Assembly (NCBI GenBank): GCA_050230475.1
Contig: JBFLGF010000189.1
Coordinates: 1 to 57,667, forward strand
Direction: 5' to 3'
Source: Ancylonema sp.
Taxonomy: Eukaryota
DNA length: 57,667 bases
The position numbers were made by a program, and so were the translations under genes. How positions within the stretch are numbered: the stretch's first letter is position 1; each line of letters starts with the position of its first letter. Below, in pieces: positions 23,601 through 26,712 of this stretch. Below the pieces are notes generated by a model. The model had not been told where the DNA came from, did not search any database, and saw only the letters and a list, made by a program, of their open reading frames with translations.

Positions 23601-26600
23601 CTTGGATATTGGCGAAAAGAGGTTCTCACACGAGAGATGTTTCACGCCAAGGTTGTCAAGGGCCTGACCAGCTCGCCTTACTTCGGCAAGGATGACATCT
23701 CGTATCTCCGTACGGGCGATCTCGGCTTCATTCTGGACCAGCAACTTTTCATCACTGGGCGCATGAAGGATTTGATAATCCTGAATGGTCGAAACTTCTA
23801 CCCCCAAGATCTTGAGCGCACGGTCGAGAAATCAGATTCTGCTATTCGGCCTGGATGCGTAGCCGCAGTCTGCTTCGTGGGTCCCACCGGCCAGGAATCG
23901 GTGGCGATAGTGGCAGAAGTCAATTCTGCCAAAGTCGGGGCGGCTAGGCTAGTGGAAGTGTCGATGGCAGTTCGTCGTTCAATCGGAGCGGAGCATCGGA
24001 TTTCCCCAACTGTCGTTGCAATCATTCCGCCGCGAACCGTAAGGCTCGCATCCAATTGACTTCCGATGAATTCGAATATATTGTAAAGGCTAATAAATAT
24101 ATTTGTTTTTTACATACACCTTTTTGTTCTTTTTTCGATGGTTGTAGAACAATGTTCAAAGGAGGGGAAGGATTTTCAATGAAAGGATGTATACATACGT
24201 TATCGTGTTTTGAATCTTTCTGAAACCATATGTGTCGATGAACATGAATAAGGAATCATGTCAAAGGGATCGACACGGACTCGATCGATGGTTGAGCCAA
24301 ATGATAGATGAATACACAATATGTATTACTACGTTCCGTTAACTCCATGACTATGTAATGACGTCAAACTTTCCTTGGTGCCAGATTCCCAAGACCACGA
24401 GCGGTAAAATTCGTCGAAGTGAGACGGGCAAAAGGCTTGCAGCTGGAAAACTCACCATCCTCAACACAACTACTTCCGGTCTCAACAAGGTAACAACGAT
24501 GCCGCATCGATTATTACATAAGAGGGGAAAAAAATTAACAAAGCGGCATGCATTGATGCTATTTCAATTCCCATTCGATCCTCCATGACCCCCAATAACA
24601 TTGCATCTCGATAATGCCGCCTCGCTTGCCCCTCTTCTCAGGGCACCAATACTACCAACCCCCCCACCACCGCCTCAAGCAACCCCTTGAACCCTCTCGA
24701 GTCTCTTCTCAATTGTTGGCAACAACTTTTTGGGGGCCCCACTGTCGCTCCCACCAACAGCATCGAAGCGGCCGTGCTTGATATTCTAGGAGTGCCACCT
24801 GGCACAAAGCTTCGGGGTAGTGATACTCTCTCCTCATTAGGCCTAACAAGTTTGTCTTCTGTCGAAGTTGCCGAGCTCATTCAAGATCGGACCGGAAAAT
24901 TGATCCCCCTCGAGCAACTATCGGCATTTTCACTAAGCGACATCCGAAAACTGAAAGGTGCAAAGCCGAAGGAGGCGACGATGGATATCACATCCAAATA
25001 TACTCAAGCGTCCGAGGGACAAGGGCTCAAACCGATTGCAGGCATTCTATCGTTTGGGACCGCCAACCCAGAGCAAGTTCACACTCAAGCTGTCTTCGCC
25101 CGAGACTACCCCAACGCGGTCAATATGGACGCCGAGTCAAGAATTAGGTTCAACAAAATTTGTAAGATCATCCACTCCTACCTGGTCTCTTGACATGGCG
25201 ATATTGAGGGTGGGATCCAAATTGTAGTCATTTTTGTTACTACAGTAACATAGATAATGCCAACAACCAGGGCATATTCAATGCGAGATTCACGCGTATT
25301 CAACGCAGATTCACGATTCAAAAAAATATTCAAACTTGTGCATGAATATACTAGTGCATGAATGAATGGTGATTGATCGGGCTAACTAGAGCTCAACAAT
25401 TTTCAGGCGAGATGTCCGGAATCGAAACTCGGCACATGGCTATGGAGGAGACGGTAGTGGAAGCCAATCCGGATCTGCGCATCTATGGTCGCCCCTCCCT
25501 TAAGGCCCGCCAGGACATTCTGGCGGTTGAAGGCCCCAAACTCGCACACGAGGCATGTGCAAAGGCATTGGCAGCGTGGGGTGGGCCGAGGGAGGCCATC
25601 ACTCACCTCATTGTTGTGACAGTGAGTGGGGTCCACTTGCCGGGAAGTGATTTGGCGCTCACCAAATCTCTCGGCTTGCGAAATGATGTCGGTCGCGTTA
25701 TGTTGCACATGTTGGGATGCTACGCTGGGGTCACCGGACTCCGTATTGCCAAGGACTTGGTGGAAAACAATCCTGGCGGTCGAGCGCTCGTTGTGTGTGT
25801 TGAGCTTAACAGTCTCATTTTCCAGGTACGCGAAATGGAAATAACAAGGACAACAAACTCATTTCCCATATCGTTGTGTGTCCTACTTTCTTTGATGAAC
25901 ATGTTTACGTTCTGATGCGACCGATGGCACACATTTTAACTATTTTGCATTGAGCTCAATTTCGGACGCAATAACCAAATCGTGTGCCTCGTGTCGGGTG
26001 TAGGCTCCTCATGATTCCCTCCCGGACAGTCTTGTCACTGCTGCTATCTTCGGAGACGGGGCAGCAGCACTTGTGATTGGTGCGGGCGACCTGCCCCCTA
26101 CCACATCAGCTTCTGCCCCCCTTGCGACCGAATCCCCTCCCATCGACGAGATTGTTGTCGCTCGCACCACCTATGTTCCTGAGAGCGAAAGACACATCGC
26201 TGGAGATCTGACTGAAGCAGGGCTACTGGTGCATCTGAAGCGGGAAGTGCCTCTGGTGCTCCCCCAACCTGTCAAGGACTTTTCGACGCGTCTCTTGAGC
26301 ATCGCTGGGGCAAGCTTCGAGGACAGCTTTTGGGCGGTGCATCCTGGAGGACGGGCGATTCTGGATGCTATTGAGAGGAAATGCCAGCTGGCACCTGACC
26401 AACTCGCAGCGAGCAGGTGGGGAAACCTTATAATCTCAAAAATTAGCCTGATTGTCTGCTTTCAAATTTGTGTACCACTCATGTCTTTTTGTCTGCAAAA
26501 TATGCTGACCAATTCAGGAATTTATTTTCAGGGAGGTGCTGCGGCGTTTTGGTAACATGTCGTCAGGCTCCGTCCTATTTGTGCTCGATGTCATGCATCA

Positions 26601-26712
26601 GACCCGAGCCAAGGCCCGCGCAGAAGGAAAAAAAATGAATCCTCAGTGGGGGGTGGCGCTGGGGTTCGGGCCTGGAGTGACTGTGGAAGGGGCATTGCTT
26701 CGTATGCTCTAA
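20694..26712 (+). CDS. Fatty acyl-AMP ligase - acyl carrier protein - type III polyketide synthase (chalcone synthase superfamily) fusion, 10 exons, ~1215 aa
   Basis: Exons 20694-21258, 21835-22031, 22213-22391, 22546-22594, 23019-24038, 24385-24489, 24642-25161, 25407-25825, 26004-26416 and 26532-26712 are all GT-AG bounded with matching phases (3648 nt, no internal stop). FAAL motifs: AFLQYTSGSTSDPKGV, SWLPQYHDMGLI, PNFGLELC, NGAEPV, YGLAE, GEIWIRSPSVALGYW, LRTGDLG, GRMKDLII, IPKTTSGKIRR. ACP-like segment LSSLGLTSLSSVEV. PKSIII motifs: GTANP, GCYAG (Cys 25718), FGDGAAA, VHPGG (His 26340), FGNMSS (Asn 26554), GFGPGVT. Confidence 0.9.

Follow-up and report, generated by a model that had tools for sequence, protein, structure and literature searches.

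A single predicted gene of the streptophyte alga Ancylonema sp. appears to join a fatty acyl-AMP ligase (FAAL), an acyl carrier protein (ACP) and a plant-lineage type III polyketide synthase (PKS) in one chain. It lies on contig JBFLGF010000189.1 (assembly GCA_050230475.1), in the window analysed here, a stretch of 57,667 nucleotides (nt). Within the PKS portion, one intron occupies the site that is conserved in chalcone synthase (CHS) family genes of land plants, and the PKS groups with streptophyte enzymes. The gene and its parts are as follows, with positions in the window, residues in amino acids (aa) and splicing predicted from the sequence.

20694..26712, + strand: ten-exon gene, predicted, encoding a 1215-aa FAAL-ACP-type III PKS in one frame
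20694-21258, 21835-22031, 22213-22391, 22546-22594 and 23019-24038, + strand: exons 1-5
24385-24489, 24642-25161, 25407-25825, 26004-26416 and 26532-26712, + strand: exons 6-10
21009..24474, + strand: FAAL domain, about aa 106-700 (Pfam AMP-binding and AMP-dom_DIP2-like)
22312, 22583 and 24406, + strand: FAAL motifs, namely the P-loop, a WLPQYHD-type motif and the catalytic-type Lys678
24762..24953, + strand: ACP domain (Pfam PP-binding, 30.5 bits against a cut-off of 20.8)
24849-24851, + strand: Ser775, the likely phosphopantetheine site of the ACP, with its motif in 10 of the 11 algal orthologues examined
25029..26712, + strand: type III PKS domain, aa 835-1215 (Pfam Chal_sti_synt_N and Chal_sti_synt_C)
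25718, 26340 and 26554, + strand: PKS catalytic triad Cys983, His1131 and Asn1164
25162..25406, + strand: Cys60 intron, 245 nt, GT..AG, phase 1, cutting the TGC codon of Cys879 as T|GC
25826..26003, + strand: second PKS intron, phase 0, after CHS position 199
26417..26531, + strand: third PKS intron, phase 2, in Arg1156 (CHS 328)

All nine introns have GT..AG borders, and the spliced frame contains no internal stop. Pfam places AMP-binding in exons 1 and 5, the carrier domain in exon 7 and both chalcone-synthase domains in exons 8-10, so that the PKS forms the C-terminal third of an intact 1215-aa chain. When exon 5 of the FAAL was compared with solved structures, the 15 best matches were all FAAL-type, FadD32, FadD23, FadD28 and 3PBK among them. 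The domain keeps its adenylation motifs, and its nearest kin are FAALs, not CoA ligases. At the place of the extra segment of 7R7F, the FAAL-specific insertion, the Ancylonema domain also has some stretch, which aligns poorly. The PKS shows the marks of its family: the Cys-His-Asn triad, Phe at 215 (CHS numbering) and GFGPG near the C-terminus.

A fusion read from a predicted gene model could be an artefact, either a FAAL gene and an ACP-PKS gene in tandem or co-translated domains that act independently. Closterium and Mesotaenium do have FAAL-ACP without a PKS, so the two halves can work apart. However, the ACP and the start of the PKS share exon 7, which makes their join independent of any splice call. 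Upstream, exon 6 reads without a stop into its GT donor, the 152-nt intron that follows is canonical, and the same fusion recurs in three Spirogloea models. Taken together, an artefact is very improbable.

The original prediction held that the intron at 25162-25406 splits a Cys codon at the same site as the intron of land-plant CHS genes, and both parts of that claim are borne out. Its GC content is 0.39 against 0.52-0.57 in the adjoining exons, and reading through it leads to a stop 11 codons past Cys879. Among 24 open-frame donor/acceptor pairs nearby, this one gives the best alignment to hop CHS and the Closterium orthologue. Residues 63-198 of alfalfa CHS correspond to residues 3-138 of exon 8, spans of equal length, and in the multiple alignment Cys879 falls on CHS position 60. 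A phase-1 intron in the Cys60 codon is given as a trait of plant type III PKSs in a passage of PMC4351062. In the residue comparison, Cys60 is missing from the seven non-plant rows shown.

Introns were also surveyed in metagenome loci, of which 79 were kept from 280 matches, with donors sought in the first 600 nt. Four of the 79 hold no full copy, and many copies are near-duplicates, notably of legume genes; the kept loci are CHS-type legume and moss sequences, with no ASCL (anther-specific CHS-like), ORS (2'-oxoalkylresorcinol synthase) or algal fusion gene among them. Of 82 land-plant-type CHS-family copies, 53 have an intron, in every case at position 60, in phase 1 and splitting T|GC or T|GT. 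The remaining 29 comprise 27 intronless copies (transcripts or intronless genes) and two unresolved ones. By coincidence, one of the three PKS introns would fall here with a probability of about 0.003, which rises to 0.03 when a factor of ten is allowed for site bias. Judged by its sequence and position, the Ancylonema intron is homologous to the conserved land-plant CHS-family intron. Within the survey, the moss-type PKS loci (L024, L032, L037, L041, L050, L068 and L078) are mostly intronless on long genomic contigs, and L068 has the Cys60 intron.

The two other PKS introns were absent from the original prediction. At the junction of the second, two of six Closterium models (P0121 and P0132) pass into foreign sequence; with these anomalies taken as intron retention, the intron is probably common to Closterium. 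The third is probably shared as well, judging from the apparently mis-spliced Closterium model P0129, which diverges directly after the equivalent of Arg1156. In Spirogloea, models P0002, P0012 and P0017 show apparent mis-splicing just past the Cys60 region. An odd stretch there, shifted by one base, is compatible with Ancylonema sequence over seven consecutive residues: all seven agree in two of the models and six agree in the other (counts that have no null beside them), which hints at the same Cys60 intron in that genus.

Separate trees were built for the PKS and FAAL domains. The main PKS tree and its approximately unbiased (AU) tests use a 35-row subset chosen by the authors, in which streptophyte enzymes form one clade (100/99) apart from bacterial and protist enzymes. 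Inside it, the algal fusion clade is recovered at 96/88, Ancylonema with Closterium at 99/97, all 15 land-plant rows together at 100/99, and the fusion clade with land plants at 93/89. The same main groups appear in a 269-row FastTree, for which 30 of 302 domains were dropped for having fewer than 300 profile columns, and in a 71-row quick tree. The sampling includes one partial ASCL and one gappy ORS-like model; it has no identified ORS from bryophytes and no enzyme identified as chlorophyte or fungal. That ORS-like model, Spirogloea P0299, is the only row of its kind and occupies a separate branch inside the streptophyte clade, apart from the algal fusion clade; an AU test joining it to land plants was borderline (p=0.044). 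The algal fusion clade branches outside every land-plant PKS in the sample, whether CHS, ASCL or fern/liverwort enzyme, and is probably the sister of them all.

With the streptophyte clade at 100/99 and Spirogloea and Closterium nearest, plant-lineage ancestry of the PKS half is supported, in line with the original prediction. The PKS is not nested among the bacterial or protist enzymes of a tree that includes no identified fungal enzyme, and grouping the algal fusion PKSs with protist PKSs is rejected (p near 0). Recent bacterial transfer of this half is rejected. Searched with exon 8, prokaryote genomes gave no relative; viral contigs likewise yielded none, and plasmids gave one weak match (33%). 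In a plant-profile scan of prokaryote genomes, one 659-bp contig (L001 1-659) from an actinobacterial assembly carried a plant-type CHS fragment, which is most likely contamination.

A further claim, that the PKS resembles PKSA/LAP6-type ASCL enzymes, did not hold. The ASCL markers are Gly225 and Ala/Val240 (PMC11316218), which the numbering in part of PMC6274091 equates, for PpASCL, with CHS 197 and 212. At 197, Ancylonema has Ile1016; Closterium also has Ile, Spirogloea Thr and the ASCL P0290 Gly. At 212, Ala1031 agrees with the marker, and Ala is also found in non-ASCL Riccia and Adiantum enzymes. Across 292 columns, identity is 41.4% to ASCL, 45.2-45.5% to CHS and 44-48% to the fern/liverwort group; the sole ASCL sampled is the partial Spirodela P0290, named from its markers and with a faulty tail masked. 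A clade of the fusion PKSs with ASCL is rejected (AU p=0.0019), so that on marker, identity and topology ASCL membership is rejected, with one partial ASCL sampled. The motifs quoted in support of the resemblance are all present; enzymes of liverworts, ferns, mosses and lycophytes have them too, so they look ancestral. When the fold of the Closterium orthologue is compared with structures of plant type III PKSs, it fits them about equally well and does not discriminate among them. A group of Psilotum, Adiantum and Riccia PKSs (P0122, P0123, P0127, P0147, P0165 and P0248) is sister to ASCL (99/93) and lacks the ASCL Gly.

In its full form, that claim would make the enzyme an algal relative of ASCL/PKSA, with the FAAL in the role of ACOS5 and a sporopollenin-type precursor of the zygospore wall as product. 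ACOS and ASCL do follow this logic, in which a fatty acyl group is activated and then used by a type III PKS. Ala at the Gln212 position agrees with one of the two ASCL markers, Leu137 and the Tyr following the catalytic Cys are common to ASCL, and the AU test does not reject a wider clade in which ASCL and the fern/liverwort group join the fusion PKSs (p=0.089). However, the Gly225 marker is absent, identity is higher to CHS, and PMC11316218 classes three Spirogloea fusion PKSs as non-ASCL. In addition, ACOS, TKPR, CYP703A and CYP704B are absent from green algae according to a passage of bioRxiv 10.1101/2024.10.10.617703. This reading is quite unlikely, and the proposed bearing on the origin of sporopollenin is indirect at best. 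ASCL enzymes (PKSA-PKSB, LAP6/LAP5 and PpASCL) do share with the Ancylonema enzyme Cys60, Ala at 212 and a likely aliphatic starter. They are stand-alone proteins inside the land-plant clade, have Gly197 and Phe265 and receive acyl-CoA from ACOS, whereas the Ancylonema enzyme has Ile197, Val265 and its own FAAL-ACP and falls outside that clade.

The active-site pocket also separates the enzyme from CHS and ORS. In CHS numbering it reads V132, S133, L137, N194, I197, A212, F215, G256, L264, V265 and S338, including the predicted Ile at the Thr197 position and Val (Val1094) at the Phe265 position. Part of PMC6274091 lists Thr132, Ser133, Thr194, Thr197, Gly256, Phe265 and Ser338 as conserved in CHS. 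Three of these seven (Ser133, Gly256 and Ser338) are kept and four are changed, which speaks against true CHS activity, a candidate we reject, and supports the earlier suggestion of a starter other than coumaroyl. The ORS markers Gln218, Val/Ala277 and Ala286 are replaced by Ile, Gly and Val at CHS 197, 256 and 265, a mapping that is the authors' own and relies on a constant offset. ORS enzymes (PpORS and charophyte ORS) resemble the Ancylonema enzyme as early-branching streptophyte type III PKSs with a small residue at 265 and a likely fatty-acyl starter, yet they differ in these marker positions, and the ORS-like P0299 sits on its own branch.

Fused and split forms of the gene are both found among zygnematophytes. 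In a search limited to proteins of 596-2000 aa, with longer land-plant FAAL-like proteins outside the sample, the best matches of the FAAL exon came from Mesotaenium, Spirogloea, one Logan protein and Closterium. The three Spirogloea models have the order FAAL-ACP-PKS; Pfam matches the ACP weakly in two of them and lists no match in P0002, which does have the Ser motif. In Closterium, FAAL-ACP proteins and stand-alone PKSs lie on separate contigs within the same strains. These PKSs are the nearest to that of Ancylonema (61-63% identity over 292 shared columns), and one N-terminal motif is common to the FAALs of Closterium and Ancylonema. Mesotaenium model P0001 combines FAAL-ACP with a flavin monooxygenase fragment, which may reflect a genuine fusion or the merging of separate genes in the model.

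Similar architectures occur beyond plants. Among a set of 50% representatives, the FAAL-ACP-PKS order is also found in Physarum P0286, Soliformovum P0397 and the metagenome proteins P0307, P0312, P0328/P0392 and P0330. P0327 has FAAL and PKS with no ACP match, P0274 combines this chassis, with only the end of the FAAL present, and a PKS of a third type, Acrasis has ACP-PKS, and Dictyostelium P0323 is a type I-type III hybrid of the 'steely' kind. Protist fusions thus resemble the algal ones in having the type III PKS at the C-terminus, preceded by a carrier domain, with identical domain order in Physarum and Soliformovum. They differ in their PKSs, which have Trp at 256, lack Cys60 and group in a clade of their own, and in their FAALs, which are distant.

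These proteins raise the question of whether FAAL-ACP-PKS is older than zygnematophytes, either inherited or transferred whole from another eukaryote or remade by swapping a plant PKS onto a fused chassis. The shared domain order and the third PKS type of P0274 speak for an older arrangement. FAAL trees comprise a 129-row FastTree without Mesotaenium P0001 and a 30-row tree that includes it. In the latter, the six algal rows form one group (100/100), the four unfused algal FAALs cluster together (100/97), and closest to them come FAAL-ACPs of oomycete type together with one Corallococcus protein (93/89), a grouping compatible with an older fusion; protist-fusion FAALs are long branches elsewhere. 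Identity of the Ancylonema FAAL is 29-34% to seven of eight protist-fusion FAALs, against 39-41% to oomycete-type and bacterial ones, and 31% and 39% to two pieces of P0327. A single origin of the algal FAALs with all five tested fusion FAALs is rejected (AU p=0.001), but one with a subset of three fusions is not (p=0.076), nor is a single clade of streptophyte and protist PKSs (p=0.23). Given also the rejected grouping of algal fusion PKSs with protist PKSs and the missing Cys60 in the non-plant rows compared, an older fusion is unlikely.

The fusion likely arose within the plant lineage, as originally proposed; the claim stands with respect to the five-fusion test and is left weaker by the other two. 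It is graded only as likely because amoebozoans have the same domain order with a different PKS lineage. Independent assembly in zygnematophytes followed by splitting is the simplest reading, not the sole one. On this reading, the fusion would date from early zygnematophytes, in which a plant-type PKS that already had the Cys60 intron became linked to a FAAL-ACP didomain. The fusion would then have been kept in Ancylonema and Spirogloea and split again in Closterium and probably Mesotaenium.

The domain content suggests how the chain may work. The FAAL would form an acyl-AMP and, like other FAALs, do without CoA when it passes the acyl group to the phosphopantetheine of Ser775; the ACP would then deliver that group to Cys983. 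Two to four extensions with malonyl-CoA, followed by ring closure through a lactone or aldol route, would give a fatty-chain lipid of triketide to pentaketide size, either an alkylpyrone or a resorcinol-type compound such as an alkylresorcinol, and perhaps a protective wall or stress lipid rather than sporopollenin proper. This route from fatty acid through acyl-ACP to polyketide draws on the FAAL motifs and kin, the PKS triad with its changed pocket, and known type III PKSs fed by acyl-ACP. We regard it as reasonably probable.

Precedents exist in bacteria. FAALs are described, in part of PMC8460268, as loading fatty acids onto holo-ACP and rejecting CoA. Acyl-ACP starters are also described for the type III PKSs ArsB and ArsC of Azotobacter, and a passage of PMC11837247 describes cylindrocyclophane synthesis as starting with a FAAL and ending with a type III PKS. 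Both the ArsA/ArsB/ArsC system and the cylindrocyclophane pathway (CylA FAAL, ACP, type I PKS and type III PKS) hand fatty acyl-ACP to a type III PKS and make phenolic lipids. The bacterial routes, however, use separate proteins and a bacterial-type PKS, whereas the Ancylonema protein is one chain with a plant-type PKS from a spliceosomal gene. A stress role would fit induction by ultraviolet (UV) light of a FAAL-clade gene in Mesotaenium (in part of bioRxiv 10.64898/2026.02.10.704744) and of an unplaced CHS-like gene in Serritaenia (in part of PMC11156808), neither of which has been matched to the Ancylonema fusion family.

Several points weigh against this picture of a plant-assembled, fatty-acyl-primed enzyme. 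Val265 and Ala212 should widen the active site, but Ile197 is bulky. In ASCL and PKS18 a small residue at 197 reportedly opens a tunnel for long chains, which Ile should make narrower. Spirogloea retains Thr at 197. The ACP motif has Thr immediately before Ser775; Asp is the usual residue there. The histories of the two halves also differ slightly: the Ancylonema PKS pairs with that of Closterium, and its FAAL falls outside Spirogloea and the unfused forms (89/79). Lastly, the two AU tests that did not reject it mean that the fusion may have an older shared origin.

Other genes and elements in the window are as follows.

16855..19193, - strand: intact KCS/FAE1-type fatty-acid elongase gene with three exons and an open spliced frame (Pfam FAE1_CUT1_RppA and ACP_syn_III_C)
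33546-36320, - strand: multi-exon MATE transporter gene, about 7 kb downstream of the FAAL-ACP-PKS gene
29050-30241, + strand: Peptidase C13 gene, presumably GPI-transamidase-like judging by its motifs
3798-6012, + strand: aconitase-family exons
13445-14524, + strand: DUF7477 protein
37226-38633, + strand: ARID-domain protein
55316-55717, + strand: weak Nup85 match
43449-44489 and 46934-48975, - strand: long terminal repeat (LTR) retrotransposon remnants, with copia-type gag and with reverse transcriptase, RNase H and integrase in separate frames

The elongase (KCS) gene stands head-to-head with the FAAL-ACP-PKS gene, 1.5 kb off when counted from its first in-frame Met, from which it encodes 455 aa; its true start possibly lies further upstream. 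KCS is a possible supplier of the long-chain starter, and the two genes might form a lipid cluster. The MATE transporter could export a metabolite.

Algal type III PKSs are already known, as passages of PMC8133574 attest. Suh, Sraan and Ashton (2024; PMC11316218) listed Spirogloea Spimu1|9263*, 2401* and 17478* as 'algal non-ORS, non-ASCL' fusion PKSs. These are very likely P0002, P0012 and P0017, which agree with them in species, number and fusion status and fall in the same clade as the Ancylonema PKS. The text of that paper flags them as fusions and cuts out the PKS part, without naming the FAAL/ACP partner, the intron or a mechanism. In the literature covered, which leaves aside subscription papers and supplements (such as that of PMC11316218, where the partners are possibly named), no account was found of an algal FAAL-ACP-type III PKS fusion or of an algal Cys60 intron. 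Passages of FAAL surveys, PMC8460268 and PMC11837247 among them, do not mention such a fusion.

Research on how land plants arose still asks what algal type III PKSs do and what the ancestor of CHS and the sporopollenin synthase made. The Ancylonema enzyme belongs to the branch next to the whole set of land-plant PKSs sampled here, and it comes with its own domains for loading a starter. A bolder scenario takes the sister of all land-plant type III PKSs to be a carrier-fed FAAL-ACP-PKS line with the Cys60 intron. CHS, stilbene synthase and ASCL would then descend from such a fused, fatty-acyl-primed ancestor through loss of FAAL-ACP, as happened again in Closterium, with the CoA ligases ACOS and 4CL taking over activation on land; this remains a doubtful proposition. 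Across eukaryotes, the three-domain design occurs with at least three PKS lineages, which would make it a repeatedly assembled phenolic-lipid module of which no description was found. Finally, the shared intron would mean that the classic structure of CHS genes predates the split between these algae and land plants.

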